Virus record (IMG/VR): IMGVR_UViG_3300006921_000010
Location: 7,768-71,767 of that record
Source: a virus
DNA: 64,000 bases
Direction: 5' to 3' (one strand)
Shown here in pieces: positions 3,917-55,414 of this stretch. Under the pieces are notes generated by a model that made no database searches, had not been told where the DNA came from, and was given only the letters and a program-made list of their open reading frames with translations. The position numbers and the translations under genes were made by a program. Within the stretch, counting starts at the first letter, position 1. The number at the start of each line of letters is the position of its first letter.

Positions 3917-5218
3917 TTAGAACTCCATTTTACTATTCTCTTCTAGTTTAGTTATACCGTCAATATCAATATCCCATGCTTTCCAATCAAATCTGGTATT
4001 ATCACTATGATTATAATATTTCATTAATTTGAATAATTCATCCTTTCTATCTTTATACCAATCTTCTTTTTTATTTTCTTTCTTTATTTTAATTAACTCT
4101 AATAATGCGTTAGCGTTATTTTTCTTTAATTTAAAGTGAGGTAAACACTTGGTTAATAATTTCTTAATGTCTCCTCCAGAATAAAAGTTGAGTCTATTAA
4201 TTAACCTAGTATCTTGTGGAGATTTCTGGTCTAGGTGTAATCTACCCATACCTAATGATTTGTGCATCTCTAACATAAACGCCTTGCCTCTATTACCTGT
4301 TGCTACTAATCCTACTCTTGGGTTATGGTTTTTATCCATTGTAATATATCCGTCTGAATCTATGAATGCGGCTGTATAAGCCCAAATGTTTTTCTTAATA
4401 TCGTCATTTATTTTATAGTGCGCCCCATCTACGTTTGTAATATTCTGTTCTACTGCAAGTTTTGCTATTATTTGGGGGGAACTTCTATCGTATAAGTTTC
4501 TAGGTAATGAATCATGTATCTCTCTTGAGGATATTCCAGGGTTATTACAGACAGAATCTAATATCGCTTTCCTTATACTATCCTTTGGTGATATACTTAT
4601 AGGGGTTTCTTTTATTATTTTCGTGAAGTTTTTCTTTAGAGTTTTCATCTCTTTAGTTAATTCACAATATTTTTCACCATAATTCAAATGTTTTCTTTCT
4701 TGGTCTGCTTCCCAATATTTACACAGAACGTCAATGACTTCTCTCTTCTGGTCTTCAGAAGTTATAGAGTTTAATTTAATTAATTTATCTTCATTATAAT
4801 TCATCTGTCTCAAAGGAGTTTCATACTTTCTTATCCAATAAATACTGCGAATACATTTAGTTAAGTAATCAGAATAATCCTCAATCAAATTATCTATGGA
4901 TTTGGTGAATGCTATTTTAGTTTCACCCTTTAGAGTTCTTCTATATTTTCTCATTGACTTAATTAATGAAGGTATATCTTTACCTTCTATTTCATATTTC
5001 TTAGGATATTCAAAAAGTGTATTTCTAGCCTCAGTAAGATTTATTTTAGCAAAACTAGCATAATCTTTAGCAATATCATCATGGCTTCTAATTGGTTGAG
5101 ATTCTAACCACTTTTGTTCCATGCTTTCTTTAATTCTAGTCATTTCTTCTTTGACTTCTTCTATATTATCTTCTTCATCTGCTAGTTTACGATATGCTTC
5201 TGCTCTTTCACTCATCAT
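3917..5218 (-). CDS. Protein with C-terminal LAGLIDADG endonuclease-like domain, central winged-helix-like segment and helical N-terminus
   Basis: YTAAFIDSDGYI motif and LLTKCLPHFKLKK typical of LAGLIDADG; ILDSVCNNPGISSREI is wHTH-like. Confidence 0.7.
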   Translation of the reverse strand: MMSERAEAYRKLADEEDNIEEVKEEMTRIKESMEQKWLESQPIRSHDDIAKDYASFAKINLTEARNTLFEYPKKYEIEGKDIPSLIKSMRKYRRTLKGETKIAFTKSIDNLIEDYSDYLTKCIRSIYWIRKYETPLRQMNYNEDKLIKLNSITSEDQKREVIDVLCKYWEADQERKHLNYGEKYCELTKEMKTLKKNFTKIIKETPISISPKDSIRKAILDSVCNNPGISSREIHDSLPRNLYDRSSPQIIAKLAVEQNITNVDGAHYKINDDIKKNIWAYTAAFIDSDGYITMDKNHNPRVGLVATGNRGKAFMLEMHKSLGMGRLHLDQKSPQDTRLINRLNFYSGGDIKKLLTKCLPHFKLKKNNANALLELIKIKKENKKEDWYKDRKDELFKLMKYYNHSDNTRFDWKAWDIDIDGITKLEENSKMEF

Positions 5219-23235: not shown

Positions 23236-23490
23236 TTATATCAACTCCTGTATATTGTTTGTTTCACATTCTTCCCAAATAACCATTAAATCTTTCATAA
23301 TCTTGATTACTCGATTAACATGTCCTTTAGGTATATTTTTCATAGAGGGATTATCAGTAGTTAGGTGTTGATTATCATCTAACCATTGGTATAAAGTGGA
23401 ACGGTCATTTACTATATGTGCATTATTCACATACCACGCTTCATTATCTGTCTTAATAAGATTTTGAATATGTTTAAAACAATCAGTCAT
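23236..23490 (-). CDS. Hypothetical protein, first gene of the leftward operon
   Basis: 84 aa; AGGGGG SD-like motif upstream. Confidence 0.5.
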   Translation of the reverse strand: MTDCFKHIQNLIKTDNEAWYVNNAHIVNDRSTLYQWLDDNQHLTTDNPSMKNIPKGHVNRVIKIMKDLMVIWEECETNNIQELI

Positions 23491-25299
23491 TGTAAAACCC
23501 CCTTTACAGGATGGTACATACTACCTTGATTATAGAACATATTCGGCATTCTCATTTTCTCACCATTTTTTTGGGGCATATTTTTTAGACCTTTTTTATC
23601 CTATTTTTGGGGTGTTATTTTTCTGGCACTTGCGTTTATTTTTTTGCTCTTTTTTGTCCATTCCCAGAATAAGAATTAATTCATTACCTGTAGTGAGGGT
23701 TTATTTGAGCATTGGTGGTTAATGTGTATTCTTTTATTGATTCATTTGTATCCTTGATGCACCGCGAATTAATTATTAATAGCGATTCATACATTGATGC
23801 TCAACAGCCTTCTATTAGACCCACATGAGTAACACTATATTAATTTAGGGTTTCTAAAGACAAAATCTTATGTCAATTAAAATAAAAAAAAATCGAAAGA
23901 CAAAGCATATGGTGGGAGAAACGTAAAGCGTTAACCACTGATGATGGTCTTACTCTCCCTCGGAATAACGTATAGTTGCGTTAAGCAATAGTAGAGAGGA
24001 GGGGAGACCAGAAGAAGGAGGTTAAAGCAGTGTGAATGAATCACACCTTAAGGGTCGGGTTTAATCACATAAAATATCAGTAGTTGGGTGTGATATCTAC
24101 CAAGCATTCTCCGTGCGTAGTTTCAATAGACGTTTCACTGATGCTTAATGCATCACCTTTCACCACTGCACACGAATGCTGGAGATACACTCCCATCTAT
24201 CTGCATCTTTTATGCAACCATATGGGTGTAGCGTAGCGTTAAGCAGCCTTAAGGATATGAAACGCTTCGCTGTTACATCATCCTGCTATTTCTAGTTAAA
24301 AGCATTGAAACGCTTCACTTTTACTGAATGTTTCATCACAACACTTTTACCACTACGTTACTAAAAATATTGAAGGATGTAATTTAATACCATATGATTG
24401 TGCATTAAGCACACTGTTGTAAGGGAGGTCGGTAATGAAGCAACGTGAAACGGCCTGAGTGGACGTTGACCGAACAAAAGGTGAGTCCCAATCTATTAGA
24501 TTGAACTCGCTACGCTCAAACAAATACAATCATATGGTATCATAAACGTAGTTTAGATTATCCCCAATGCGGTCACAATTCTTAGCGACACACCAACCAC
24601 TCCCGTTGTTTATTGCTAAACGCATATCTACTAAGAATGCGAACCATATGGTAGTGTTAAGTTATATCTGAGTTTACTCTGTTTAGGCAATGGAGGAACG
24701 AGGTGAACTGGTAAGTATTATCACGCAAACATACATAAAACGAATAGTGCATTAAGCACAGTTGTATGTGGCGGCTTAAGTAATACTTACCGTGCAACCA
24801 TGTTCCGCAATTTGCCTAAACGGAGTAAAGTCAGGGGAACTATTATCAATACCACAAATGTGGTTATTATTGACTCTATATAGGAAGAAGACGATATCAT
24901 CATGCTTAATGCATGGTTCTAGTGAGTGCGAGGCGCACTCCAAGAACATCTGATATTCAACCGTCTTCTCCTATATCTCCCCGAATATAACCATATGGTA
25001 GTGTTAAAGTGTAGGTTACTTTACCTAAGTCTTCGGAAACTTTCAAGGCTAGGAGAATATTTAACAGCATACATACGCGCTGAACCTAAACTGGTTCAGG
25101 TAAGTAATGTATTGGCATTAAGCCAATGTTTATTTGGACTAGCCTTACAGTTGGAAGAGACATTAGAGTTACAGTATACTAAACAATAACATCTACCCCA
25201 TGTCGTCTCCTCCCCAGGTGTCTCCCCTTCTGGTTGTTAGCATAGTATCCATAGAACGGCTTAATGCCTTATAGTTCTATTACCTAGATACTATTACAA

Positions 25300-25360
25300 C
25301 CATATGGTGTTATACTTTGTGGTATAACACCTTAAATACTAATCAATATCTATTATAATG
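25300..25360 (+). promoter_or_regulatory. Cassette promoter A (archaeal TATA-type)
   Basis: CCATATGG-N6-ACTTTGT-N9-CCTTAAATACTAA-N-ATTATAATG; TATA-like TTAAATA at 25332-25338, ~26 nt before the inferred start; layout conserved in four copies. Confidence 0.7.
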
Positions 25361-25767
25361 TCGAGGAAACGTAACTCGACATGAGTGTGCCAGAATAAGT
25401 CCGTTATCTAGGGCTAATGGAATGCCATGTTCTGTGGTGGAACAACGAGGCCGATAATAATAAGTCGGTCAGTGAAAGGAAGGTAACTCTTCTATGGTAA
25501 GTTTTCTGGGGTGAATGCTACATGCGAATATAGATACCCATTCAGAATTGGTGGACGGTAGAAATATCAACCCACTCACTCCCCTGTTTTTCTAGTTTCA
25601 AGGATTGAGCCAAACGATAGTTTAATGGACTCATAAAATAAAAAACTAGACCACATAAACGAGTGGGAAATAGAAGTGGAAATCCCGTAAGTTATTCCAG
25701 TGCATCCAACCGAAAGGCTAGCCATTAGTGCGTTAGTAGGTTGCAGGTGTTATAAACAACGCTCGAC
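25359..25767 (+). ncRNA. Putative ~410 nt structured non-coding RNA
   Basis: Follows promoter A; no ORF of 60 aa or more; several nested complementary segments and a CCGAAAGG GNRA hairpin. Confidence 0.45.
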
Positions 25768-26604
25768 CTTGTGGGTTTATTAACAAAGTATACACCCATA
25801 TGGGTGTAGCCCTTAAGGAGACTTTTTCGTTATTATTTCATGGCTTCACGCTTTTTCACATTAATTGTAATCAAGTGCTAAATGCACTATACCATGTTAA
25901 AAAACCTTCACCATTTCAAAAATCACAAAAAACCATTTCATTGTTCCATATGGTAGGAGTCTAGTCTCAGGCATTATGCCTAGAACCGTGGTGGGAAGAC
26001 TTAGGCCGACCCCAAACGTATTGGGGACTATCTATACTACGTTATGACACCATATGGTAGTGTAAAGAAAGGAACAGGATAAATATATTTATGCGGGTAT
26101 GGTGTGTGCGATTACGGTGCTTTTCTAGTATTATGAATAATACAGTATAGGGCATTTAGCCCTTGTATTCATAATGCGTATAGGGAAAGCACGTATACGC
26201 TACACAAATGTCCCGCATAAATATTATTTATTCTAGTGATTCTTATCATCTACCCGTCTTGAGGGCGGGAGACTTCAGGTTATCTGGTGTTAGACTTGGC
26301 TTAACGCCACTTCTTAGTTTCTATGAACTAATAAGAATAGTTCTTCCTAACACCATATGGATGGGGGGCATTAGTCATACAAAGGACATTAAGTCTGCTA
26401 CGAAGTAGATTTGACAATGCTCTCTCTCCACATAAAGTTTAAGACCTGGGGCAAACTATGTATTTGTATCGTTAGATAAACTACTGCCGTTGGCCGTGTT
26501 TATCACGAACTGCAACCATATGGTGGGAGTGGTAATACTTTGTTAAAAGAACGTGAACCTGAAAAAAGGGACAAAAAGAAGGGTGAAGGTGGCCTATCAC
26601 CTAA

Positions 26605-27144
26605 TCACTCTTCTTCTTGTCCCCCATTATCTACTACATTAGGATAACCTTCTAGTGTGAAAGTCCCATCCCAGAAATAACGCTTTGATACGTCATTCTT
26701 AGCATACGCATTGTAGCATTGACTCAAAAATAAGGACATAACCTTAGTTTGATTGTCAGCGTATTCTGTGCGGCCATCATCCATATCTCTATAGAGGACA
26801 CCGCCGGATTTACCGTGTGTTTTAGCAAAACCGCGTTCTTGATTGTATGCTACGTCATATTGATACTGCCAATAATCTGCTTTGTATGTATCAAAATCCG
26901 ATTTAATAGCGGTTGTCATCAATGACCTTCTACCGCCGCCAATAGGGGAATTGCTCAAATCAGCAAATATCCCACTAATGCTAGACCAATGCTTCTTACG
27001 AAGGTCGCTTTGCATGTCACCTATCGCAAATAGTCCATCAGCAATGACTCGTCTACCCTCATGTTGAGGGTTCGCATCGAACCATTCTGCAATCAATTCT
27101 TTCTTCGCATTCCATGTGTTATCTTCCATACTGTAATCTACCAT
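26605..27144 (-). CDS. Cassette-encoded orphan protein, paralogue of 29338..29847
   Basis: 179 aa; own promoter, GGAGG SD; shares N-terminal ME..W and HGKS.G, YA, WDGT and terminal QEEE motifs with the paralogue. Confidence 0.8.
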   Translation of the reverse strand: MVDYSMEDNTWNAKKELIAEWFDANPQHEGRRVIADGLFAIGDMQSDLRKKHWSSISGIFADLSNSPIGGGRRSLMTTAIKSDFDTYKADYWQYQYDVAYNQERGFAKTHGKSGGVLYRDMDDGRTEYADNQTKVMSLFLSQCYNAYAKNDVSKRYFWDGTFTLEGYPNVVDNGGQEEE

Positions 27145-27191
27145 AATTTATTCCTCCAAGTTATATAAATAACTAGGTGTTAGGCCACCTT

Positions 27192-27252
27192 CATTACAGT
27201 CATTTTAACTTACTATTTAAGGTGTTCATCCACAAAGTATCACACCATATGG
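27192..27252 (-). promoter_or_regulatory. Cassette promoter B
   Basis: Minus strand CCATATGGTGTGATACTTTGTGGATGAACACCTTAAATAGTAA...TAATG, nearly identical to promoter A. Confidence 0.7.
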
Positions 27253-28472
27253 AACAACGAAGTGGTAATTGGTAATTGCTTGTAGCGAAGAGTAATTATA
27301 TATTAGTAAGGACATTAAGTCCTAGCAATACGTTGAATATATAATTGTGATTGAGCGAAAGAATTAGCCATTCGTGCCTTAAGGGTTACACCCATATGGT
27401 AGTGTAAAACGATAGACGTTATGGGTTGTAAGGAGACTTGTCATCGTCTAGTCGTAGAGTAACGATGAGAAGCATCCGTCAAGACATGTTGTCGGCTTAG
27501 TTGGTACAATATCCGATATCTTGGGATTGTAAACTGTCCTCAAGATGTGGCTTAATGCCACTTACATACGTTTATCAACCATATGGTTGGTCATAATTGA
27601 AATACAGTTTGATGTGAACATTTAGGTATCAATAAGGTAGCGCAGTAATAGTGCTACATTACTTATACCGTGAACATTGTAAACTGTGTAATGTATAGAC
27701 CATGCCCCATTTTTGAATGGGGTCAAGCCCTAAACCACGTTATTTACGCTTAATGCGTATTTTCTCTTGTCCATATGGTTGTTAATAGACTGGTCTATAA
27801 CTTACCCCATTGTGGAAACCGCTAACGTTGTCCTTGCCTAGCAAGTGTTCTTAATGACACATTACAACAACGCTACTTCCATATGGGTGTGCATTAAGCA
27901 CAGGGTAAAACATAAACCCCCAAATGAGGATTATACATGGCGTTCCGAGAGGAAACCTCCTCCACTAACAATGTATAACCATATGGTTGCATTAAGCAAG
28001 GAACGTAGTATAGAGGTCTAGGGCGGCTCTGACCGATTAATACTACGAGACATTTCCCGATTGCCAAAAATGGGATTGACTTCCGCTAACCGCTTAACTA
28101 AACTACGCAAATGTTTCCATTTTCGTAGATTATGTAAAATCAACCATATGGTAGTGTAAAGATGGAACTGAAGAAAAATATATTTTTCTGAGAGTGCAAA
28201 GAGTGGGGTTTTGCAGATTCAGATGATATTAATTTAGCATTTAGTGGCATTAAGCCACTGCGTAATATTATCGGTTAAAACTCTGTAAAGCCCCCTTTTG
28301 CACCTTGTAAAAATATATTTTGTCTTTGAGTGTATTCTTATCATCTACCCGTCCTAACATCCGCCCCTCTGGTGCTAGACTTGGCCTAATGCCAACTGAC
28401 TAGATTATAATCTACACAGTATCGTTTTATCTAACACCATATGGTTCTAAACTTTGTCTATAGAACCTGAAG

Positions 28473-28688
28473 TTAATCTTCAGATTCCCCCGTTATAGAC
28501 ATATATTCGTCTAAAGCCTGTCTTAATTCGGACATAACCATAGAAAGGTCATCACCAGATACCTTCAATTCCTCAATAGAGAGGACAATGTTCTGTCCTG
28601 ATTTCATATGCTTTAATTTGATAGCATATTTAGGGGCATTTACTTGTTGTATAATAGTAGTAGTTTCGTTATTCATTAAAATCACCAA
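28473..28688 (-). CDS. Cassette-encoded small protein
   Basis: 71 aa (likely start MNNETT after GGTGA SD); downstream of promoter C and a structured leader. Confidence 0.6.
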   Translation of the reverse strand: MVILMNNETTTIIQQVNAPKYAIKLKHMKSGQNIVLSIEELKVSGDDLSMVMSELRQALDEYMSITGESED

Positions 28689-28798
28689 AGGGTGAGACAG
28701 CCCTTAACCAAGTGGCTATACTTCCAATAAATACGTTTAGATTGTCTCATGGCATCATCACGTTGTTGGATAGCGGTCAAGCATTGGTGGGCTGTCTA

Positions 28799-28860
28799 CA
28801 TTATAATAGATATTAGTTAGTATTTAAGGTAGTCCTTAACAAAGTTGTCCTACCATATGG
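28799..28860 (-). promoter_or_regulatory. Cassette promoter C
   Basis: Minus strand CCATATGG-N7-ACTTTGT...CCTTAAATACTAACTAATATCTATTATAATG. Confidence 0.7.
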
Positions 28861-29231
28861 TTCATCGTAGATTGGACAGAACCAGATTTTAGGGCTTACA
28901 CTTGGTATTGTAATCATTGCATCTGCGCTTCGTTGGCTGAATACGCCTGATAAAGAAATATCAGAAGAGTATATGTATTCATCCTTTGAAGACTTGATGG
29001 AATGAAACAATCCCTTCGCTACAACCATATGGAGGGTCATGAAGTGATAAAAGGTAATGTATGAACATAACAGTATGAATAAGGTAGCGCAATAATAGTG
29101 CTACCTTAGTAATACCGTGAAATACATTATTTGTTCATGATAGATTTCTCCACACAAATGAGGTATCCCCACTTACGTTTTGCAGAGGAGATGGCTTAAT
29201 GCCATATATCTCTAATTTCTCAGCAAGCCTA

Positions 29232-29289
29232 CCATATGGTTCGACTTTGTCAAGAACCCCTTATATACTAACTATGTTAGATTATAATG
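29232..29289 (+). promoter_or_regulatory. Cassette promoter D
   Basis: CCATATGG-N4-ACTTTGT...CCTTATATACTAAC...ATTATAATG. Confidence 0.7.
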
Positions 29290-29337
29290 TCGCTGACCTA
29301 ACTAAAGGGAAGAAAGGATTATTGGAAGGTAATTAAA

Positions 29338-29847
29338 ATGGAAGAAAGTAATTGGAATAATGTAAAGAATAAAGTAGCCTCATGCTTAGATGGGGATATT
29401 GATAGTGAAATACCTATTGATGTGAAAACATTAGTAAGCATGCTAATGGAGACAGGAGATAATAATGTCGCAAACCGAACCGCACTAGCGGCATCAGTAA
29501 AAGCGATGTTGAAAGATTTCCCATCAGGTCAAGTAGTCTGGAGAAGAGGTAATCAAGGACTATTGTCTATTGAGGCAAGTATGGTTGTTGAAACTGCTTG
29601 TGCAGAAATTAGAGAAGCGGCTCATCTGTTTTTCACCACTACTCAGACTTATTCACAACCCCTGTTACGAAAGCATGGTAAATCTAAAGGCGCACCTGTG
29701 TTTTTAGATGCCGATGACTACGCAAATACTCTAGTGGCTAAAGCCAAGCAAACTGCTAGAGAATTATTCAAATCCAAAGAATGGGATGGTACTACTGACG
29801 GCTTAGATGCATGTGCATCTTATACCGAAGTTCAGGAGGAGGAATAA
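29338..29847 (+). CDS. Cassette-encoded orphan protein, paralogue of 26605..27144
   Basis: 169 aa; GGAAGGT SD; shared motifs as above. Confidence 0.8.
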   Translation: MEESNWNNVKNKVASCLDGDIDSEIPIDVKTLVSMLMETGDNNVANRTALAASVKAMLKDFPSGQVVWRRGNQGLLSIEASMVVETACAEIREAAHLFFTTTQTYSQPLLRKHGKSKGAPVFLDADDYANTLVAKAKQTARELFKSKEWDGTTDGLDACASYTEVQEEE

Positions 29848-30475
29848 TCGCCTTCTGAACTTTAGTTTTGGTCGGCGACAACGGTAGGCAAGGATAGGTT
29901 GAAATATACCTATTCTTGTCTCCAAAACTTCTGGTTCTATGGACAAAGTTTAGAACCATATGGTCACACTAAAGATGTGCCTCAATTTGTGGATACGCAG
30001 ATATTCTTATTCTTTGTCGTTCATAACATATCATCTCCTGAATATCTGCTACCATATGGTAGTCCATAATGAATGGAATGAAAAGGTTTAGGACTTACCC
30101 GAGGGGTTTTTTAGGGTATGCACAAGGACGATTCTCTTGTGCTTAATGCACACTCTCTGCCACCATATGGTTGTAGAGTAATAAAAAAAGAATAGCGTGT
30201 TGTAGAGCGAGGGCATCGAGGTGGTGCCGCGCAGTATATATACTAACTCGATTTGATTGTAATGTCGGCGGCAATTAAAATCTAATGGCCTGTTAAACAC
30301 GCATTCCGCCAATGGCCTATTTATACCTATTACATTTAATGGCTTAATTTATTATACAGTGAATAAGCATAGTTTAGGATTAATGAACCGAGAAGGCTAT
30401 CTATGTATAATATATCTCTTATCTTATACACATATCAATATGGCATATCCTATATGATATGATAGTTTATCGAAT

Positions 30476-30755
30476 ACGTTTCTAATTTCTAATTTGGATT
30501 GGAAATGAGTTTGCTCAAAATGAGTGGGTTAGGGTATAGTAAGTATGTTAAAATTATATATTTATAATATTATAATATTTCTAACTAATATATATAACAA
30601 CTACCTACCTACCTACCTACCTACCTACCCTGATGGGGGGTTAGAAACGTTAGAAATTAGAAATGACAGTCAAAACAAGTTAAATTGTATCAGTTATCAT
30701 AGAGTATCTGGTGCAAAATGTGTTTCCAATGGGATTAGAATAAGGTTAGAAATGC
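30476..30755. other. Candidate replication origin: AT-rich core, inverted TTAGAAA repeats, (CTAC)7 tract and G-string
   Basis: TTTCTAA at 30479, 30486 and 30578; TTAGAAA at 30641, 30650, 30657 and 30746; nearly pure AT at 30548-30600; CTAC x7 at 30601-30628; G6 at 30635-30640. Confidence 0.45.
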
Positions 30756-30834: not shown

Positions 30835-31392
30835 ATGGTATTAACCAAGAAAGAAGAAAAGAAAATAATTAAACGATATAAAGAAGGTATGAAAACAAAG
30901 GACATAGCATTAGAGTTAAATGTTAATCAAAGTAAAGTAACTTCTAAGATTTACCACCTACAAGGGTTAGGTATTTTACCTAAGAGATATGGTAAAGATA
31001 AAGTGTCTAGGAAACATATTATGATGAATAATTTAAACTATACACCAAAGACAGTAACAACACAAAAGAAGTTGAAACAAGGTGCTTTACCAAACACACA
31101 AACAAAGGCTATAAAAGACAGGCAAGTGCTTGGTGAGAACCAGGTCAAAATAGCAGGACTTATGGATGAAATTAAGACAATGCTTTTGGCTAAAAATGTT
31201 CAGTATGGCGACTCCGCTTTACAGCCAGTTAGAGTCTTTTCTACGGCTGACACAACTGAACAAATCAAGGTAAGAATTGATGATAAAATTAATAGAATTG
31301 TGCAAGGTAATGATAGTATGGAATCAGATGAAGATGTGATTAAAGACTTGATAGGTTATCTTGTATTATTACTCATAAATATGAGAGAGTAA
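30835..31392 (+). CDS. HTH fused to a DUF1599/Nmad1-like nucleotide-modification-associated domain
   Basis: N-terminal EGMKTKDIALELNV HTH; C-terminal KNVQYGDS...RIDDKINRI...DLIGYLVLL. Confidence 0.7.
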   Translation: MVLTKKEEKKIIKRYKEGMKTKDIALELNVNQSKVTSKIYHLQGLGILPKRYGKDKVSRKHIMMNNLNYTPKTVTTQKKLKQGALPNTQTKAIKDRQVLGENQVKIAGLMDEIKTMLLAKNVQYGDSALQPVRVFSTADTTEQIKVRIDDKINRIVQGNDSMESDEDVIKDLIGYLVLLLINMRE

Positions 31393-38500: not shown

Positions 38501-39827
38501 TCATTATGGTAATGAATATAAGTTTAAACTAAAAATATTCGGTGCTAGTGATTCTGCTACAGATTTCCAAACTACTAATGTGTGTGTTTATTCTACATAT
38601 GAAATAGAGACTTTAATGTTAGAAGTAGCGAGAACATGGAATCCACATTTTGCTCAAGGTAGACGACACTCCGGCCACATGATTGAGCATTCATATGGAG
38701 GTGATTCAGTTGTTTCCGTATCTGTTCAAAATCAATCAGGCGGATATGCTAAAGGTGAACCTCTTATTCAAGAGATTCAGAAAACATTACAGTTTCTTTT
38801 CGGTTGGGGAAATAGAAGATACAGCAGGCGTTTTGGAACACCTGATGAGTTTAAGATTGCTATTGTTTTACCAGATGCAGGTAATATGGCTATAATGATA
38901 GAGAAGGGTAAAACCTACTATAAGTTAATGAATCAAAGGATTAAGAAGAAGAATCTAATGTTTGCTATGTCAAGATATTTGTATCGTTCTACATCAGACA
39001 ACGATGGAGTTAGCCTATTAACATACTTAATGAAGATGATGACATTGCCTGAAAATGTATCCTATGTTTTAGAAAATCGAATCCCATTTTGGTTCTTTGA
39101 TATGGAAACCAGACAGAAGGTTCATTGTAGACTTAATGCTGAATTAATAGGCACTTCAGAAGTAGCAATAGAAGTATCGGATGGTATTTGGGGTTCACTA
39201 TCAGTCGAAGATTTAGATACTATGGTAAATTATTTCTATCTAGGACATACTCGTTCTAAAACATGGAGGAATGCTTCACCTAAAAGATTGTGGACTATGA
39301 CTATGGGTGAAGAACCCACTAATTCACAGTTAGATTTGATGAAAGAGTTTCTTGTTCAGAATAGGACTAAGGATTTAATAGAGAATCGAGCAAAAGAATT
39401 GATGGCTAGTTTAGTTGTTAAGTATCCAGATAGAATTAATATCATAGAGGTAGAAAATAAAACCATTATGTTTGTTGCAGGTAAGTTAGGTGATTGGGCT
39501 ATAACAGCAACAGGATTAGGTAGAGGTAGTGCCACGCAGAAAGTATCAGTATACTTTTATGATACTATGTCCTCTGATGAAGGGGTTTTTAAAGGCCCAA
39601 TTTGCATTGATAACATACATTCTAATTCAAGTTTAGGAGACCAATTTGCTTCAAGAGCATTGGCTTTATTAAACGATAAATTAACTGTTAAATTAATACA
39701 TACTATTGATAGATATATACCAGATGGTTGCACTGAAGAAAATGATGAGTGTAGGATATATAAAACAACTAACATACCATTAGCAGAATTAGATGCAAAG
39801 ACATTGAATTGGAGTGAATTGCTATGA
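38484..39827 (+). CDS. Hypothetical protein with C-terminal GPICID...GDQ...ALAL.ND motif
   Basis: 447 aa ORF immediately upstream of TFB and E1. Confidence 0.55.
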   Translation: MKLMFSHYGNEYKFKLKIFGASDSATDFQTTNVCVYSTYEIETLMLEVARTWNPHFAQGRRHSGHMIEHSYGGDSVVSVSVQNQSGGYAKGEPLIQEIQKTLQFLFGWGNRRYSRRFGTPDEFKIAIVLPDAGNMAIMIEKGKTYYKLMNQRIKKKNLMFAMSRYLYRSTSDNDGVSLLTYLMKMMTLPENVSYVLENRIPFWFFDMETRQKVHCRLNAELIGTSEVAIEVSDGIWGSLSVEDLDTMVNYFYLGHTRSKTWRNASPKRLWTMTMGEEPTNSQLDLMKEFLVQNRTKDLIENRAKELMASLVVKYPDRINIIEVENKTIMFVAGKLGDWAITATGLGRGSATQKVSVYFYDTMSSDEGVFKGPICIDNIHSNSSLGDQFASRALALLNDKLTVKLIHTIDRYIPDGCTEENDECRIYKTTNIPLAELDAKTLNWSELL

Positions 39828-40756
39828 GTAGCATTTGTATAGAGTGTGAAGGTAATGAGTTTATGTTTGATGATAGGTTAGGTGAACGAATATGTGTATC
39901 ATGTGGCTTTGTTCAGGTTACTCATATCTTTGAGGACACTAATAGAACAATAGTATCAACAGACCATCACTATAATTTAGGTGCAGGTATTTTTATTAAA
40001 GGTGCAGATAGAGCATTGGGTTCATTCATTGGGGAAGAACGCACCAATAATACAGACTTAATTAGTTCTTTGAAAAGAACCCAAAGAAGGTTTAGGAACA
40101 AGAAAGATATTTCAATCAACCGAGGACTTATGGAATGTAATATGGTTTTATCCCCATATCTACCTAACATTAGATTGAAAGAGAATGTTCATTCTTATTA
40201 TCGAAGATTATACTTCGACCATAAGTTTACAGGTATTCCATTAACTCTAAGAGCATGTGCTGTAGTAGTTATATGTCTTAGAGAATATGGACTACCTATA
40301 AGCATTAATGAGTTAGCAACTGCAAATAATGAAAACCCACATAAGGTGTCTAAATATGCTAGACATCTTGCTAGGTTCTTAGGTAAATCTAGTGTATTAC
40401 AAAGTATGCCTATCTCTCCGTGGATTGATAGAGTATGTAATGACTTAAATGCAAGTAGAGAGTTTACAAGTGATTGTAGAATAGTAGTAGAGTATTTGCA
40501 TCAGTTAGTATTAGAACATGACATACACTTCTCAAGAAGTTATATGGCTACAGGAATATGGATAACATCTCTACTAAGAGCGCAGGGTAAACCAGAATAT
40601 ACCCAAGAAGTAATATGTAATGCTTGTAATTGTTCAGCAGTTGCACAGCGTTTAATTGCGAAGAAATTATTTCCCATGTTAAACTTACAGAAAGATAAAC
40701 TGAAAGTATTAACTGTGGAAGAGTTTGTATCTGGTATAAGAATAGGAGGACAATAA
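39824..40756 (+). CDS. tfb: Transcription initiation factor B (TFIIB/TFB) homologue
   Basis: N-terminal Zn ribbon CIECEG...DDRLGERICVSCG followed by two cyclin-like repeats (ACAVVVICLREYGLPISINEL; ATGIWITS...TQEVICNAC). Confidence 0.85.
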   Translation: MSSICIECEGNEFMFDDRLGERICVSCGFVQVTHIFEDTNRTIVSTDHHYNLGAGIFIKGADRALGSFIGEERTNNTDLISSLKRTQRRFRNKKDISINRGLMECNMVLSPYLPNIRLKENVHSYYRRLYFDHKFTGIPLTLRACAVVVICLREYGLPISINELATANNENPHKVSKYARHLARFLGKSSVLQSMPISPWIDRVCNDLNASREFTSDCRIVVEYLHQLVLEHDIHFSRSYMATGIWITSLLRAQGKPEYTQEVICNACNCSAVAQRLIAKKLFPMLNLQKDKLKVLTVEEFVSGIRIGGQ

Positions 40757-40758
40757 TA

Positions 40759-41379
40759 ATGAAAACAAAAACAAAAAGAAAGGTGCTAGTGATTGGAGTA
40801 GGCGGGATAGGTAGTTTCCTAACCCCTCTACTTCATAGGACAGGGTTGTATGATATTTACATGCATGACCCTGATACTGTTGATTTGAAAAACATCAGTT
40901 ATCAAAACTTTAATCATGGTGATATTGGATTGAATAAAGTAACTGCAATGCGTATCAATACTACTTGTATGAATCACTTGGCTGATGTTGGGTTGAGTCA
41001 AGGTAAAGCATATCCGATATTAACTAAGAAACAATTAGAAGGTTTTGATTTAATAATATGTTGTGCTGATAATCTAGCAGTAAGAAAACTCTTGTATGCT
41101 CAAGGGTTCAAAGATGATTGTAAAACACATTGGTTAGACCTTAGAGCGCAAGGTAGAAATGGTGCTTTGATTAGTTATCTTACAGAGGGCAATTTTAGTG
41201 AAACATTACTAAATGGGCCAGAAGGTTCTTTCTCTTGTCAAGGAGAGAACTTTAATGAATCCTTAAATACAGAGGATTTACACTTCACTCACGTAGCAAT
41301 TGCGGGTTATGGCGCACAATGGATGCAACGATGGTTCGCAGGTGATGAAGTAAAGGACAAATATATAATAAACGTATGA
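40759..41379 (+). CDS. ThiF/E1-like ubiquitin-activating enzyme
   Basis: VLVIGVGGIGS, DPDTVDLKNISYQNF, K, IICCADNLAVR; candidate catalytic Cys in FSCQ. Confidence 0.85.
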   Translation: MKTKTKRKVLVIGVGGIGSFLTPLLHRTGLYDIYMHDPDTVDLKNISYQNFNHGDIGLNKVTAMRINTTCMNHLADVGLSQGKAYPILTKKQLEGFDLIICCADNLAVRKLLYAQGFKDDCKTHWLDLRAQGRNGALISYLTEGNFSETLLNGPEGSFSCQGENFNESLNTEDLHFTHVAIAGYGAQWMQRWFAGDEVKDKYIINV

Positions 41380-43524: not shown

Positions 43525-43753
43525 AGAAAAACTACCACCAAAGACTCATGTTCGTGAAGGTGTTTACGAATTGATGAGTGAAATAATGGAAGTAGAATTA
43601 GATTCGCTGTTAGAAGCAATACTAATTGATTATAGTAATGGTGGCGATAAAGCCATAAGAAAGTCCCACGTTTATACAGCATGGGCGAAGCAAATAATAA
43701 AATTAAATAGAGGTAATAAAAATGACATTGAGCATATTTTCAAGAATGAATGA
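43478..43753 (+). CDS. Histone-fold protein
   Basis: LKEKIKEKLPPKTHVREGVYELMSEIME...DKAIRKSHVYTA fits the a1-L1-a2-L2-a3 histone pattern. Confidence 0.5.
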   Translation: MVKMIISQRKLKEKIKEKLPPKTHVREGVYELMSEIMEVELDSLLEAILIDYSNGGDKAIRKSHVYTAWAKQIIKLNRGNKNDIEHIFKNE

Positions 43754-45263
43754 GAGATTAGAAGGAATCACACCAAAGGAACAAGTAGAAGAGTTAAGTA
43801 ATTCTTTAAGTGCTTTTATTGGTGATGATAAGGCGTTAGTAATACAGATACTTGCACTAGAGTATGATGTGAATAACATAGGTGAAACTAGGGCAAAGGC
43901 ATGGGTTGCTAAAGCACTAGGTATATTTGATGAGGAATTAGATTCATACATCCATACATGGGGCGACATAGGAGAAGCAGTCTATGAATTAGATACAGGT
44001 AATGAGAACGATTCTAAACTATCAATTAAACAACTACATCGTTTGTTAAGTTTAGATTGTTCAAGAATCAATAGTCATTCATATGATTTATTTTCCGAAG
44101 CGTTGTCTTTTATGAGTGCTAGAGAGAAGAAGTGGTTTCTACGTTATTGGCTACACAAGCCAAGAAACGGAGTGCATACTACAATTCCAAAGAAGGCAAT
44201 GGCTAGGTATTATGGTAAAGGTGTAAGAGAGATTAATAAATACGCGCAATACAATTCATTATATGAGATATGTTTAGATTTAGAAGCAGGTAATGTTCCT
44301 GAATGTAAACTAAAACACGGGCAGTTTGTAACTCCTATGCTAGCAAAGGCTAGAAAAGGTGCTGAAAAACCAGATAAGTATATTATTGATATTAAGTATG
44401 ATGGTAATAGGTATATTATACATAAGAAGGATAAACACATAATTATCTTTAATCGTAAAGGCAATATAGCAACAGACCAATACCCAGATATTGTTGAGAT
44501 AGTCAAAGAGTTTAATGGAGATATGATATTAGATAGTGAAATATATCCTATCAATAGAGATGGTTCACCTGCTGAACACAAGATGTTAGGTAAGAGAGTC
44601 CACAAGAAAGACAAAGCGGAGGCAGTGCGAGAATGTCCTGTTAATCTTGCTGTGTTTGATGTATTATCTTTCAATGGAATCTCATTGTTGGTAGAAACAC
44701 AAGAAGTAAGAATGAAGAAACTATTAGAAGTAGTGCCTAAAGAATATCAAACACATATCTTTGAGGATGACACTATCAAATCAGCATATAACAAAGCAAT
44801 TGATTGGGGCTATGAAGGTATAATGATTAAAGATGCATCTATGATTTATGAGGCAGGTAAAAGAAGTAAAGGTTGGTTGAAATATAAACCACCACGCATT
44901 GAATTAGATGTAGTAATAACTTCTGGCACATATGGTAAAGGAACAAGAACAGGGTTGTTTGGTTCATTTGGTATATCAGTTAAAGAAGGTAGTAATTATG
45001 TCAATGTAGGTAAAGTAGGTACAGGGTTTTCTGATGAAGAATTAGTATGGCTAACTAATGAACTTAGAAAGAGCATTGATAGAATGGATAATGGTGTGTA
45101 TTATTTCCTACCTAGAATTGTATTACAAGTAACAAGTGATTTAGTTACGAATGATGCAGATGGTAATATAGGATTAAGATTTCCTAGAAGCATGAGAGTA
45201 AGACATGATAAGTTTGCTAGTGATGTGGACACCATACAAACAGTTAGGGAGATGATGTTATGA
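43722..45263 (+). CDS. lig: ATP-dependent DNA ligase
   Basis: PMLA, KYDGNR, LDSE, FDVL, EGIMIK, WLKYK, KVGTGFSDE, LRFPR. Confidence 0.95.
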   Translation: MTLSIFSRMNERLEGITPKEQVEELSNSLSAFIGDDKALVIQILALEYDVNNIGETRAKAWVAKALGIFDEELDSYIHTWGDIGEAVYELDTGNENDSKLSIKQLHRLLSLDCSRINSHSYDLFSEALSFMSAREKKWFLRYWLHKPRNGVHTTIPKKAMARYYGKGVREINKYAQYNSLYEICLDLEAGNVPECKLKHGQFVTPMLAKARKGAEKPDKYIIDIKYDGNRYIIHKKDKHIIIFNRKGNIATDQYPDIVEIVKEFNGDMILDSEIYPINRDGSPAEHKMLGKRVHKKDKAEAVRECPVNLAVFDVLSFNGISLLVETQEVRMKKLLEVVPKEYQTHIFEDDTIKSAYNKAIDWGYEGIMIKDASMIYEAGKRSKGWLKYKPPRIELDVVITSGTYGKGTRTGLFGSFGISVKEGSNYVNVGKVGTGFSDEELVWLTNELRKSIDRMDNGVYYFLPRIVLQVTSDLVTNDADGNIGLRFPRSMRVRHDKFASDVDTIQTVREMML

Positions 45264-49007: not shown

Positions 49008-49244
49008 ATGAAGAAATTATTTGACTTTAACAATGATGGTAAAGTAGACAAAGAAGATTTCAAACACCTTATGTTAAGGTATGAAATAATTCTATTGGGA
49101 GGTATGGCATTAATTATATTGCCTATACTAAACTCAATGGGAGTAATAGAAGTAGATTCTGATACGTTCTGGGTTTTGGCAGGTATTGTCATTAGCGCAG
49201 AAGCAGTATTAGAAATCATACACGAAAGGAGGAAAAAAGAATGA
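49008..49244 (+). CDS. Small membrane protein with EF-hand-like loop
   Basis: DFNNDGKVDKEDF followed by two hydrophobic helices. Confidence 0.55.
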   Translation: MKKLFDFNNDGKVDKEDFKHLMLRYEIILLGGMALIILPILNSMGVIEVDSDTFWVLAGIVISAEAVLEIIHERRKKE

Positions 49245-51990: not shown

Positions 51991-52760
51991 ATAGTATTCA
52001 AGTGAATACTAAATCATTTATAGAAGCAATAGAGGCAATTTGGCTTAAAGGTAAATATAAGTCCTCTACTACTTCTAAGACTGATGTTATCAGTAATACC
52101 TGTGTAGCAATTGTTAGAAGTGAAGAGTTAGAGTTATTGAACGGTAATGATAAAACAGCATTGAGTGTTATAATACCAATTGAAGAACAAATCTCAGTAG
52201 TAGAAGAGATGCTTATATTTGATATAGAGAAACTAATGAAATACGTTAAGAATATGAAATGTGTAAATCTTACATTAAGATTTAATCAATCTACGTTAGA
52301 AGTTAAAGGATTAGTTAAAACAGTTAAATTACCAAGACTGTTAGAGCATACTAATATGAATCTAATTACTATGATTATGTCATTTGACTATGAGCATGGT
52401 GGTAAGGCTATATTCGGCAAGACAGAATTACCTTGTCAATTATCATTTAATGGTAATGAATTGAAAGAAGCAGTTAAGTTTTGTTCTGTATCTGGCACAG
52501 CAACATATACTATTGTGCATTGGGGTGGGAATAATGAGTTTAAACTTATGTCATCAAGCAGTAGTGGCACAGATACTAGTGAAGTAAACGTATCATTACT
52601 ATCAGAAAATGATTATGATGCAACAGTTTCATTTTCTGCACCATTAGATAAGTTTTGTATAGATAGTGAGATGACAATATTAACAGGTGATAACTTACCT
52701 GTTATGTTAATTGGGGAAAGTAGAAAGATGGTGGTAGCACCATACGTTAGAAGTGATTGA
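51951..52760 (+). CDS. pcna: DNA sliding clamp (PCNA-like)
   Basis: Size, two-domain beta/alpha pattern ending LPVMLI...VVAP; located between ATPase and PolB. Confidence 0.65.
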   Translation: MERNNRTTRGNSLNSIQVNTKSFIEAIEAIWLKGKYKSSTTSKTDVISNTCVAIVRSEELELLNGNDKTALSVIIPIEEQISVVEEMLIFDIEKLMKYVKNMKCVNLTLRFNQSTLEVKGLVKTVKLPRLLEHTNMNLITMIMSFDYEHGGKAIFGKTELPCQLSFNGNELKEAVKFCSVSGTATYTIVHWGGNNEFKLMSSSSSGTDTSEVNVSLLSENDYDATVSFSAPLDKFCIDSEMTILTGDNLPVMLIGESRKMVVAPYVRSD

Positions 52761-54426
52761 AATGATAATAAGCACTGTAGATAAGAATAATATGATTGGC
52801 CTTAGATGGCGAGATGAAAATAATAAAAGAGTAGTGGAGGAGGTTTCTTACGAAGAAGCCCCTCCCTATTTCTTTGTAGAGCAAAGTGCTAATAGAATAA
52901 AAAGAATGTCTGTTAAAGAATACGGACAAAGTTTCACTATCAATGTTAGTTATGAAGAAGGTGATTATGTTTCTTTAGAGAAGAAGAAACTAACTAAAGT
53001 TACGTGGACTCCTCCTAAACCGTGGTATGGTAAAACATTAAAGAATCAATTTAATAAAACGTATGAAGCAGATGTAGCATACTCATACAGATATGCTGTT
53101 GATAACATACATGATATGCCAGAGTATGACCTTAGAAAAATCTATTGGGATATGGAGTGGCAACAAGGTGGTGAACATGATAATGCAGTTACTTGTATTT
53201 CCTACTATGATAGTTATACAGGTGTATCTAATGTATTATGGTGGACACCATTAGGTGCTGTTCGTGATATTATAGACCATTGTAAGCCAAATGAAAGTGA
53301 GCATGATATGTTAGAATGTTTTCTTACGGTTATAGAAAGTCATGACCCAGATATGCTAGTTGCATGGTTTGGTTCTAAGTTCGATTTACCTAAGTTAATT
53401 GAAAGACTACATGCTAATGGTATAGACCCTAGACGTTTATCTCCTTATCATGATGTTAAAGGTGTATTCTTTGAACCAAGTAAAGGGATTAAACTCACAA
53501 AGGCAGTAAATAACTACTCACCAATAGAACAACCTATTCGTGGAAGACTTGTTCTAAACCTAGACTTAGCATTTGAAAGGCAATGGAATGATTCACAAAG
53601 AGGAACATTACCTTCTATGGCTTTGGATTATGTATCTGAATTGGTATTAGGGACTAAGAAACTTGTTAGTGAAAAGTTTCCTGATAAGAATGATTTCTTT
53701 CAAAGAGGATGGCTTGAAGATACTCAAAGATATTTAGATTATGCTAGGGTTGATGTAGACCTTCTGGTTCAAATTGATGACAATATGAACACATCAGAAT
53801 CTGTAATAGCATTACAGCGATTGCTAAAAGCACCCTTTGAAGCATGTTTCTATGCAAGCAATATGGGTGGGATATACTTCATGCGTAATGCATGGTGGAA
53901 AGCCCCTACGGGTGAGAAAGGTGAACGTATAAATTATGAAGGTGCCATGATTTATGACCCTTTAACTGAAGGCACAAATGGACTACATTTAGGTGTAGCC
54001 GCATTTGATTTTGCACAACTGTATCCATCAATGATGATAGCAAGAAATATTTCTTGGGAAACTAAATCAAATGAACCAACGGAGTTTGCAGTTAATATAT
54101 TAACTCCAAGAGATTTCAGTGATGTTACAAAAGAAGATATGCGTTATTTCAAAACAGATAAACTTGGTTTATTACCAAAAGCAGTTTTGGAACTTAAAGA
54201 ACTAAGAGATGAATATAAAGCAAAGATGCGACAAGCAGAAACTAAAGACGAACAAATTAAATGGAACAGTAATCAATTGGCAGTTAAACGACTGATGGCT
54301 TCATTCTATGGTATTACCGCATATCAAGGCTTTGGTTGGGCTGACGTAGATATAGCGGCTTCAATAACTGCTAGTGCTAGAGAAGCAATTAGATGTGCAG
54401 CATTAAAAGTGGAGGGATTAGAATGA
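52753..54426 (+). CDS. polB: Family B DNA polymerase, N-terminal part (3'-5' exonuclease, motifs A and B)
   Basis: WDME, FDLPKL, YARVD, FDFAQLYPS, KRLMASFYG. Confidence 0.92.
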   Translation: MIEMIISTVDKNNMIGLRWRDENNKRVVEEVSYEEAPPYFFVEQSANRIKRMSVKEYGQSFTINVSYEEGDYVSLEKKKLTKVTWTPPKPWYGKTLKNQFNKTYEADVAYSYRYAVDNIHDMPEYDLRKIYWDMEWQQGGEHDNAVTCISYYDSYTGVSNVLWWTPLGAVRDIIDHCKPNESEHDMLECFLTVIESHDPDMLVAWFGSKFDLPKLIERLHANGIDPRRLSPYHDVKGVFFEPSKGIKLTKAVNNYSPIEQPIRGRLVLNLDLAFERQWNDSQRGTLPSMALDYVSELVLGTKKLVSEKFPDKNDFFQRGWLEDTQRYLDYARVDVDLLVQIDDNMNTSESVIALQRLLKAPFEACFYASNMGGIYFMRNAWWKAPTGEKGERINYEGAMIYDPLTEGTNGLHLGVAAFDFAQLYPSMMIARNISWETKSNEPTEFAVNILTPRDFSDVTKEDMRYFKTDKLGLLPKAVLELKELRDEYKAKMRQAETKDEQIKWNSNQLAVKRLMASFYGITAYQGFGWADVDIAASITASAREAIRCAALKVEGLE

Positions 54427-54499: not shown

Positions 54500-55414
54500 G
54501 TGGAGAAAATGAGAGTAGTTTATGGACATACAGATTCAATATACGTTCAGATGCCTATGGAACGGGCAGAAGAAACATTAGCATTACTAAATAATCATGT
54601 TAGAAGTCATTTCCCAAACCTGTTGGGTCTAAAGGAACACCCTGTAACTTTAGAGTTTGAGAAATACTACAAGACTTTAGGAGTAGGTATTACTAAGAAC
54701 AGAAATGCAGGTCTAATAACATGGAAAGATGGTAAAACATTAGAAGAACCGGAGTTTGTTATGACAGGTTTTTCTGCTAAAAGAGTAGCAGTAACTACAT
54801 TAGCAAAGACAATTCAATTAGAAGTGCTTAATCGTTGGGTCAATGAAGAGAGTGAAGAGAGTATTACTTCATATCTTAAGACTCAATACAATAGAGTATT
54901 AAACGGTCAAATTGAAATTGATGAGATAACAAACAGAAGTAGATATAGACCCGAAAGATTCGTCTATAAGTGTAATGATTGTAATAAAGAATACACCGTA
55001 GATGATGCAATTAAAAGACACAAGGAGTTTACTACTTCTTTTTGTGGTAAGTGCGGCACCGAGTTAGACTTAAAAACTCTTGAAGGTAAACAACCAAGTA
55101 TAGGTAGTGGAGTAGAAGGAGTAATTTGGTGGAACCAAACATATCCTACACCTATTAGTGAATCGTATTTTTATGTTAGAGTCCAAGATGACCCGTTAAG
55201 GCTTAAATATATTAATCCAATAACAGGAATGCACAAAAGACCAACCTACTTAGCGGCACCAAGTAAAGAACAGATGCCGAATCATATCCCAGATTATAGA
55301 CACTATTCAGATTCTATAATCAAAAAAGCAGAACCGATTTACAATGCTATGGGATGGGATTTAAAACCAATTAAAAACGATGTGAATCAAACAAACCTAG
55401 AAGAATGGTGGTAA
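54500..55414 (+). CDS. polB: Family B DNA polymerase, C-terminal part (motif C, thumb; likely start 54509)
   Basis: YGHTDS, LEFEK, KNRNAG; CNDC...CGKCG insertion; C-terminal QTNLEEWW PIP box. Confidence 0.9.
   Translation: MEKMRVVYGHTDSIYVQMPMERAEETLALLNNHVRSHFPNLLGLKEHPVTLEFEKYYKTLGVGITKNRNAGLITWKDGKTLEEPEFVMTGFSAKRVAVTTLAKTIQLEVLNRWVNEESEESITSYLKTQYNRVLNGQIEIDEITNRSRYRPERFVYKCNDCNKEYTVDDAIKRHKEFTTSFCGKCGTELDLKTLEGKQPSIGSGVEGVIWWNQTYPTPISESYFYVRVQDDPLRLKYINPITGMHKRPTYLAAPSKEQMPNHIPDYRHYSDSIIKKAEPIYNAMGWDLKPIKNDVNQTNLEEWW

Follow-up and report, generated by a model that had tools for sequence, protein, structure and literature searches.

Putative transcription cassettes in a palindrome-jointed module array of a likely archaeal virus from the ocean

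The window analyzed here is the whole 64-kb stretch of viral DNA at positions 7,768–71,767 of IMG/VR virus record IMGVR_UViG_3300006921_000010, which is a single contig of 71,767 bp. The window contains four small cassettes, A to D, that lie in mixed orientation and read inward from both ends as CCATATGG-N-ACTTTGT. Ends of this kind raise the question of what the cassettes are. A sequence-only reading of the DNA had taken them for invertible or mobile expression cassettes or, alternatively, for the first genes expressed on entry. The explanation favored here is moderately probable: A to D are autonomous transcription units, all four of them within a 6-kb array of palindrome-jointed modules, and the modules are shuffled at the palindrome (A)CCATATGG(T).

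The palindrome CCATATGG is 8 bp long, or 10 bp in the form (A)CCATATGG(T). It is present in 24 copies in the window versus 0.90 expected, and the maximum in 100 shuffles is four. All but one of these copies bound the units of the array (Table 1); the 24th (63968) lies within a tail-fibre-like open reading frame (ORF) and is compatible with chance. The units are 104–737 bp long and neighboring units have common boundaries. Structural genes on the minus strand lie on one side of the array and replication genes on the plus strand lie on the other. Among 379 distinct half-sites, flank conservation is limited to the base next to the palindrome, which is T in 83%. The functional site is therefore taken to be ACCATATGGT. 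Outside the array, CATATG is present in 21 copies and is not depleted, which gives no sign of restriction avoidance.

The composite CCATATGG-N4-13-ACTTTGT has eight matches in the window versus 0.00 expected. These are at 25300+, 25803-, 26516+ (with N13), 27252-, 28437+, 28860-, 29232+ and 29963-, and they are exactly the eight cassette ends named in the sequence-only reading. Its remark that ACTTTGT was not seen at the ends of other units also stands, as none of the 38 remaining half-sites of the array (0/38) carries the motif. Where two cassettes abut, the joint is a composite of 32–36 bp, ACAAAGT-N-CCATATGG-N-ACTTTGT. This double junction is found in 39 stretches on 35 viral contigs and in a single stretch among 185,579 prokaryote genomes (one per species). 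A megablast search of 23400–30600 against 50,697 phage records has no matches, and a full-text literature search for CCATATGG has unrelated uses only among the matches listed.

Table 1. Coordinates of the array, the four cassettes and other named features of the window
Feature	Position	Strand	Details
Array of 22 units	24218–30170	.	Unit boundaries are 23 copies of the palindromic CCATATGG, mostly as ACCATATGGT
Cassette A	25300–25803	+	Hairpin 25306–25331; ACTTTGT 25314–25320; TATA-like box 25332–25339; predicted start 25358–25360; downstream inverted end 25783–25803; layout alike in relatives
manA-class structured RNA (RF01745)	25359–25582	+	Cargo of A; about 190 nt of 3' extension after the match
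Cassette B	26516–27252	-	Promoter end 27252; ACTTTGT 27232–27238; TATA-like box 27213–27220; predicted start 27192–27194; ORF 26605–27144 (179 aa); downstream end 26516–26543
Cassette C	28437–28860	-	Promoter end 28860; ACTTTGT 28839–28845; TATA-like box 28820–28827; predicted start 28799–28801; ORF 28473–28688 (70 aa from the ATG at 28676); downstream end 28437–28467
Cassette D	29232–29963	+	ACTTTGT 29244–29250; TATA-like box 29262–29269; predicted start 29287–29289; ORF 29338–29847 (169 aa); downstream end 29933–29963
Fifth promoter copy	30237–30267	+	TATATACTAA-N9-ATTGTAATG; precedes the first replication-module genes; without ACTTTGT hairpin
HTH (helix-turn-helix) protein	30835–31389	+	First conserved gene right of the array; weak N-terminal HTH matches
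TFB/TFIIB homologue	39824–40753	+	Zn ribbon and two cyclin folds
Split family-B DNA polymerase	52753–54423 and 54500–55411	+	Break within the catalytic domain

Aligned over 36 cassettes (window plus eight related loci), the cassette ends share one layout. Upstream, a hairpin stem opens with the GG of CCATATGG (GGT...) and closes with ...ACC. The hairpin loop at the cassette ends is (A/G)CTTTG(T/C), and the arms vary between cassettes with their complementarity kept. Among 114 distinct ACTTTGT-type ends from 14 loci, the GG-anchored stem has a mean length of 5.25 bp, versus 4.33 +/- 0.10 (maximum 4.68) when the partners are permuted (1000 permutations). A TATA-like box (TTAAATA, CTATATA or TCATATA) lies immediately 3' of the stem-closing ACC, and in the 36 aligned upstream ends a T-G step (usually ATG, ACG or TTG) is found about 28–30 nt past the box. 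Downstream, the inverted ACTTTGT hairpin is in many cassettes preceded by a small GC hairpin, often CCCTTCGGGG, together with a T-run. The downstream ends of C and D are inverted relative to each other, identical at 30 of 31 positions, and bracket C, two small units and D. One identical substitution follows ACTTTGT at both of these ends in strain L164, which suggests exchange between them.

A shared promoter had been proposed for the upstream ends. It is present as CCTTAAATACTAA-N9-ATTATAATG in A and C and as CCCTTATATACTAA-N9-ATTATAATG in D, while B has a variant, CCTTAAATAGTAA...ACTGTAATG. With the additional copy beside the array (Table 1), the genome has five copies of this TAWATACTAA-N9-ATTRTAATG-like promoter. 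Because the same promoter heads the replication operon, the five promoter-bearing units are probably co-regulated and, by analogy, plausibly expressed early. The alternative offered by the sequence-only reading, that the cassettes are the first genes expressed on entry, is plausible. In some relatives the cargo ORF begins at the initiator ATG itself, and the mRNA there would be leaderless; leaders are present in B, C and D of the window.

The proposal that these promoters are of the archaeal type is well supported, by a viral TFB homologue, a capsid protein of archaeal-virus type, a TATA-to-start spacing that is kept in relatives, a manA match whose first position is the predicted start of A and RNA-library contigs whose edges lie just inside the predicted starts of A, B and D. 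The TFB homologue matches NCBIfam NF001658 over residues 3–288 (E 5.9e-10), its Zn ribbon matches 1PFT (E 0.0046), and its homologues carry PF08271. The AlphaFold2 model has a pLDDT of 75 and matches 39 PDB chains in Foldseek at E<=0.001. Among the matches listed, these are TFIIB/TFB/Brf-type chains, including the Pyrococcus TFB in complex with TBP and DNA with a BRE (TFB-recognition element) and TATA box. Against 1d3u_B the TM-score is 0.80 and the root-mean-square deviation is 2.7 A. Since the virus carries this homologue, archaeal transcription is presumably used and a TATA-type reading of the promoters is reasonable. Judged from its sequence and model, the viral TFB homologue is a possible reader of the viral promoters. 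In the text of 10.1101/2021.07.29.453957 that treats such homologues, they are known among archaeal viruses only from some rod-shaped crenarchaeal and Asgard viruses.

Two DNA runs and two metatranscriptome runs (two studies) were mapped on 24000–30400. All four are Logan contigs, in which RNA ends, strand and level are not visible and rare variants are dropped. RNA-library contigs that are 95–99% like the window lie on A (25375–25686 and 25380–25769), B (26611–27184 and 26732–27184) and D (29303–29898). Their word depth, a single figure per contig that is unfit for ranking genes, is about 240–254 on A (the deepest of the RNA-library contigs), about 10.6 on B and 6–9 on D. The blocks begin 8–20 nt inside the predicted starts, and none extends into a promoter. 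Position 27184 is the end of both B contigs, from the two studies, with no loose end, and the DNA runs extend past it, which is a weak hint that it is a real 5' end. The start predicted earlier for A coincides with the first position of the manA model. At >=90% likeness, cassette C and all non-cassette units are free of RNA-library contigs; the RNA contigs are from a related strain and the runs are contigs only, so this result says nothing on silence. One RNA-library contig follows A to 25769 and then has 207 letters unlike the window, so a related strain differs just before the downstream hairpin.

The arrangement of the cassettes was compared among the 14 loci with a homologue of D, including the window. 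The loci were oriented on D, and B, C, the flanking genes and manA were mapped. D is the rightmost cassette and is co-oriented with the adjoining replication genes in all 14 loci. Relative to D(+), B is in the '-' orientation in 10 of 12 loci and in the '+' orientation in 2 of 12. C is '-' in 11 of 13 loci and '+' in 2 of 13, and manA is '+' in 3 of 7 and '-' in 4 of 7. The cassette order is A,B,C,D in the window, A,C,B,D in L166, C,A,B,D in L167, B,A,C,D in L168 and C,B,A,D in L173. L167 has each of the cassettes A, B and C inverted with respect to L166, and the alignments end 0–6 bp from palindromes. The exception is one end of C, which is a longer cassette in L166.

The closest comparison is between the window and strain L164. 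The flanks of these two are 93–95% identical, and the order and orientation of A to D are equal. The small units between the cassettes, by contrast, are relocated and inverted. Among the 16 alignments (high-scoring segment pairs, HSPs) of >=90 bp inside the array, 37 of 64 endpoints lie within 3 bp of CCATATGG, versus about 5% by chance. For example, the 158-bp unit at 25796–25953 is inverted in place with its joints otherwise unchanged, and the sole terminal inverted repeat of this unit is the 8-bp palindrome. The number of units also differs between close strains. The palindrome site is strictly conserved across viruses of 32–44% GC. The window's own arrangement around A, B and C-D is reproduced with no differences in DNA run X3, which is not flagged as the source.

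These comparisons divide the earlier claim of invertible or mobile cassettes. It stands on an evolutionary scale for A, B and C, which vary in order and orientation with breakpoints at CCATATGG, and not for D, which is fixed. The ACTTTGT arms do not account for the mobility, as non-cassette units without such arms are inverted and moved just as precisely. 'Mobile' and 'invertible' therefore describe the evolutionary behavior of the palindrome-delimited array and not that of the ACTTTGT ends. Of the two features that the sequence-only reading set out for comparison among relatives, orientation varies, but the cargo is a conserved set of four and not a variable pool. There is no sign of a programmed switch in the loci compared or in the contigs mapped.

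In the favored explanation, each cassette would follow one plan. A palindrome-anchored hairpin with the ACTTTGT loop would lead into the TATA-like box, an initiator about 28 nt on and the cargo, followed by a terminator-like hairpin or T-run and an inverted ACTTTGT hairpin. Host RNA polymerase, TBP and TFB (host or viral) would initiate at the predicted sites. Recombination inside the palindrome would cut out, flip and re-insert units, and the joint would remain unchanged because the palindrome reads alike on both strands. Orientation would be neutral, since each cassette brings its own promoter and terminator, and neutral flipping explains the mixed orientation without a switch function. The fixed orientation of D may be owed to the adjoining replication operon.

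On the sequence comparisons, all units, promoter-bearing or not, are exchanged and flipped with the palindrome as their joint. Its length is insufficient for ordinary homologous recombination, and the process involved would therefore be the action of an inferred cut-and-rejoin enzyme or template switching at a microhomology that is repeated. The ACTTTGT hairpins would instead delimit transcription units, acting as insulators or as the site of a regulator, and would not be recombination signals or transposon ends. Upstream, the hairpins adjoin the TATA box at the place expected of a BRE or operator; downstream, they follow the terminator.

Several points weigh against this explanation. The loci include near-duplicates (L173/L176 and L172/L174/L175), so that the fourteen represent about seven independent lineages. 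No recombinase, integrase, transposase or HUH nuclease is recognized among about 95 ORFs in Pfam, PHROGs and NCBIfam, and no tyrosine or serine recombinase family is found at E<=0.001, where a divergent enzyme is possible. No inversion, deletion or circle joints are present in the four runs mapped, all of them contigs that drop rare variants. With a promoter weight matrix derived from relatives (23 upstream ends), shuffled genomes score as high as the real one, and the matrix is useless for finding more promoters; the promoter class is sharply defined only within one genome. The exact transcription starts are predictions from the DNA, since contigs cannot show RNA ends, and the archaeal host is deduced from the genes. 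The manA match has 54.3 bits, which is 0.9 below the Rfam gathering score of 55.2, and the matches in relatives have 32–46.5 bits. The cargo of B, C and D has no match in Pfam, PHROGs or NCBIfam.

Shufflons (multiple-inversion systems) and integrons are the familiar cases of segments separated by one short conserved rearrangement site and of arrays of cassettes with shared joints. A dedicated, active site-specific recombination of this kind is unlikely here. It would involve an unrecognized viral or host enzyme at ACCATATGGT that keeps the modules moving within the population, possibly as an adaptive generator of diversity. The array resembles a shufflon in that its segments are bounded by one short conserved site and occur in both orientations. 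Precise inversion on the 8-bp palindrome alone, which is below the length for ordinary homologous recombination, is consistent with such an enzyme, as are the many rearrangements between strains with nearly identical flanks and the strict conservation of the site across viruses of differing GC. Two ligase-domain proteins and several nucleases are encoded by the virus, and the named candidates for recombination are a PD-(D/E)XK nuclease (55419–56294), an ERCC4 nuclease (57575–58270), an HNH-like region (3917–5215), the two ligase-domain proteins and the HTH protein. Unlike the known shufflons and integrons, however, the array is accompanied by no recognized recombinase of the Rci or IntI type, and its site is a perfect palindrome. 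Nothing past A-CCATATGG-T is conserved that could act as recombinase arms, and rearranged joints are absent from the runs mapped (contigs only). Inversion in a shufflon swaps gene ends, but the cassettes here are self-contained, no gene variant would change, and flipping alters no reading frame or promoter-gene link. Unlike integron cassettes, those of the array carry their own promoters, lie in either orientation and are flanked on each side by an inverted end, and no integrase is found.

A stronger form of this idea is tentative. An enzyme of an unrecognized family at ACCATATGGT would continually invert, excise and re-insert the modules, which comprise the early-gene cassettes, a manA-class RNA gene and hairpin-rich non-coding units. 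If true, the continual shuffling at ACCATATGGT would represent, in archaeal viruses, a site-specific recombination system of a new kind, and manA would be recast as a stand-alone viral RNA instead of a riboswitch.

It is improbable that the repeats are purely regulatory. In this case CCATATGG and the ACTTTGT hairpins would form an operator or insulator for a viral DNA-binding protein, such as the HTH protein, and the rearrangements would be rare by-products of slippage or template switching. The HTH gene is conserved beside the array: it has a homologue downstream of D in 14 of 14 loci and more than 1100 homologues overall (>1100), some with PF07750 (GcrA), and it is a candidate binder of the array motifs. 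The hairpin adjoins the TATA box at the position of a BRE or repressor site, ACTTTGT is confined to promoter-bearing units, and the text of PMC11065993 on early promoters describes inverted repeats over the BRE in other archaeal viruses. A regulatory role leaves unexplained the inverted motif at the downstream end, the palindromes that bound 14 promoter-less units and the regular fall of breakpoints in the palindrome. The favored explanation keeps the boundary role for the hairpins and assigns rearrangement to the palindrome.

Transposons or miniature inverted-repeat transposable elements (MITEs), with CCATATGG-N-ACTTTGT as terminal inverted repeats moved by a transposase, are disfavored and very improbable. 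Such repeats are present at 8 of 8 cassette ends, the common CCATATGG could pass for a target duplication, and positions vary among relatives. Unlike transposons and MITEs, the cassettes have no dispersed copies: each cargo is single-copy in the genome and confined to the array, and the same four cargoes recur across the relatives examined. Units without these repeats move equally, the library scans find no transposase, and the double junction is virtually absent from the 185,579 prokaryote genomes. That the array is a replication origin or packaging region, with the palindromes as initiator or terminase sites and the promoters incidental, is hardly credible: many copies of one short palindrome lie at a GC-skew switch between divergent gene blocks, but the switch coincides with the change of coding strand, the spacing of 100–730 bp is variable and unlike that of iterons, the array has 38–40% GC versus about 33% for the genome with no AT-rich unwinding stretch noted, and unit number varies between close strains.

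With these alternatives weighed, the autonomous transcription units of the favored explanation, shuffled at the palindrome, can be compared with known viral systems. By analogy, the array would be a system of PeSL-like promoter-terminator modules, and its closest functional analogue is the PeSL (promoter early stem-loop) of T4-type phages. As described in the account of these motifs by Arbiol et al. 2010 (PMC2839356), PeSLs consist of a strong early promoter and a stem-loop repeated in hyperplastic regions, where recombination shuffles ORFan modules and yields mini-circles. Both systems, on that account, have a repeated promoter and stem-loop composite that is concentrated in one region and flanks small genes of unknown function, and in both, recombination between motifs shuffles modules among close relatives. 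Unlike the PeSL described there, the promoter here is an archaeal TATA/initiator and not the sigma-70 type of a T4-like bacteriophage, the hairpin is present at both ends in inverted form, and every joint is one exact palindrome of 8–10 bp. The modules here are also inverted as well as swapped, and the cargo includes a structured RNA.

Two further systems come from archaeal viruses. The haloarchaeal virus HGTV-1 has a conserved motif of a TATA box and inverted repeat before ORFs, which the relevant text of PMC3950731, with reference to Sencilo et al. 2013, likens to PeSLs. The likeness, as far as that text goes, is of an archaeal tailed virus with a TATA-like box and inverted repeat before many small ORFs, proposed for transcription and shuffling. 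Unlike the window, HGTV-1 has only four scattered copies of CCATATGG in 143,855 bp and no array. In the text of PMC11065993 on early genes, consensus regulatory sequences of archaeal viruses are used to predict anti-defence genes. Those early genes, like the cassettes, are small, single and mostly hypothetical, with a near-identical strong promoter core and conserved flanks. The viruses treated in that text are crenarchaeal, however, and as described there they are without palindromic joints, a downstream inverted copy or reported unit-wise inversion. New relative to the known systems are a joint that is one exact palindrome, hairpins that stand inverted at either end, inversion plus exchange, the many promoter-less hairpin units of the array and the RNA cargo.

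Under the favored explanation, the array is a case of an archaeal virus whose modules are shuffled at a defined palindrome of 10 bp, and it extends the PeSL idea from T4 phages to such viruses. ACCATATGGT is a concrete site at which to seek the recombining enzyme. The ocean is rich in viruses of the Marine Group II archaea, none of them in culture, and there is no knowledge of their transcription; the cassettes supply exact predicted positions of promoters, starts and terminators for it. A term search of three magrovirus papers, in the text that it covers, finds no mention of promoters, palindromes, or non-coding or intergenic regions.

The statement that each cassette holds one cargo is roughly correct. 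Cassette A has no ORF of >=50 aa, and hence none downstream of the manA-class RNA within the cassette. B and D have one ORF each, and C has a 70-aa ORF and a possible 32-aa ORF upstream of it. The manA match in A covers model positions 1–192 of 192, including the long-range helix and the conserved loops (E 4e-13). At the gathering threshold the whole window contains no Rfam family, and ARAGORN finds no tRNA. The manA-class RNA is present in seven of eight genomes (the window, L164, G002, G006, G007, G008 and G010; not G009), and the entire manA cassette of G002 is 311 bp long. In the alignment of the seven viral copies, compensatory changes are present in 23 of 33 predicted pairs, scored on RNAalifold's own structure and not on the Rfam structure.

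The manA motif is described in the relevant text of Weinberg et al. 2010 (PMC2864571) as a likely cis-regulatory element of the 5' untranslated region and a candidate riboswitch, in T4-like cyanophages and gamma-proteobacteria, 'found almost exclusively' in marine environments. The RNA of cassette A is like the manA of that description in its full-length match to the model and its marine environment. It is unlike it in having its own promoter, no downstream gene in the cassette and an archaeal-type virus as carrier. As a stand-alone, transcribed gene, the manA-class RNA would bear on the role of this orphan 'riboswitch candidate'.

The proteins of B and D are distant paralogues (E 9e-5) and form one family, marked by an HGKSxG motif, by W..DG and by an acidic tail, EEE. 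For D, the AlphaFold2 model has a pLDDT of 82 and is all helical, and it has no Foldseek match in the PDB at E<=0.001. Homologues of C lie inside cassettes of relatives, and homologues of D and C are unannotated viral proteins. A search of the ESM Atlas with the cargo gives unnamed viral clusters only, with scores of <=0.87.

Cassette B has further features of its own. In the predicted transcript (minus strand), the first 20 nt (GAAGGTGGCCTAACACC..., 27172–27192) and the stretch after the stop codon (26580–26604) are mutual inverted copies, so that the two ends of the mRNA could pair. The B cassettes of relatives also have inverted copies from end to end, with other sequences. Hairpins of the form GGGGCATTA(A)GCC or GGGGCAAC, similar to the apex hairpins of the non-cassette units, are found in relatives within the 5' and 3' untranslated parts of B. 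At 26801, inside the ORF, a contig in two DNA runs matches rightward and has about 255 unlike letters leftward, nearly equal between the runs. In this strain variant, the C-terminal half of B is a different one.

Among the non-cassette units (24143–30149), those at 24644, 26050 and 28144, for example, are long imperfect hairpins with an apex of GCATTAAGC / GCTTAATGC; their arms are unrelated and their layout is alike. The apex has 13 copies genome-wide, all within the array and none in cassettes A to D. Folding energy by strand and G-U counts per unit favor the plus strand for several non-cassette units. This bias is equally present for the sense strand of the coding cassettes, and base composition may explain it.

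The gene content places the virus among the tailed viruses of archaea. The structural genes encode a portal, a large terminase, a prohead protease and an HK97-type capsid protein. The replication genes encode a family-B DNA polymerase in two ORFs, an RFC-like clamp loader, an ATP-dependent ligase, an ERCC4 nuclease with helix-hairpin-helix (HhH) domain and a class II ribonucleotide reductase. The matches of the capsid protein in the phage collection are archaeal tailed viruses only (9 of 9 records), and the polymerase (PolB) is nearest to that of haloarchaeal viruses, with about 25% identity. A split polymerase is a hallmark of group B magroviruses in the text of Philosof et al. 2017 (PMC5434244) on this group. 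The sequencing runs listed with part of the array are marine metagenomes in 24 of 24 cases. Group B traits of the virus are thus the split PolB, the haloarchaeal-allied capsid protein, the archaeal-type replication genes and the marine origin. On these traits, it is likely a marine tailed archaeal virus and a member of the group B magroviruses.

Other genes deserve brief mention. A protein of 843 aa with an ATP-dependent DNA/RNA ligase domain is encoded among the structural genes, before the window (L163 4210–6738, minus strand), and is a second ligase besides the one at 43722–45260. The ligase was also considered as a guide to the host. Its sole cellular match has 58% identity and lies on a 24-kb contig (L219) of a metagenome-assembled genome labelled Maricaulis, which is probably a binned viral contig, and the match was not used. 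A ThiF-family protein (40759–41376, plus strand) is encoded directly 3' of the TFB homologue, and an EF-hand protein of 78 aa is encoded at 49008–49241 (plus strand).

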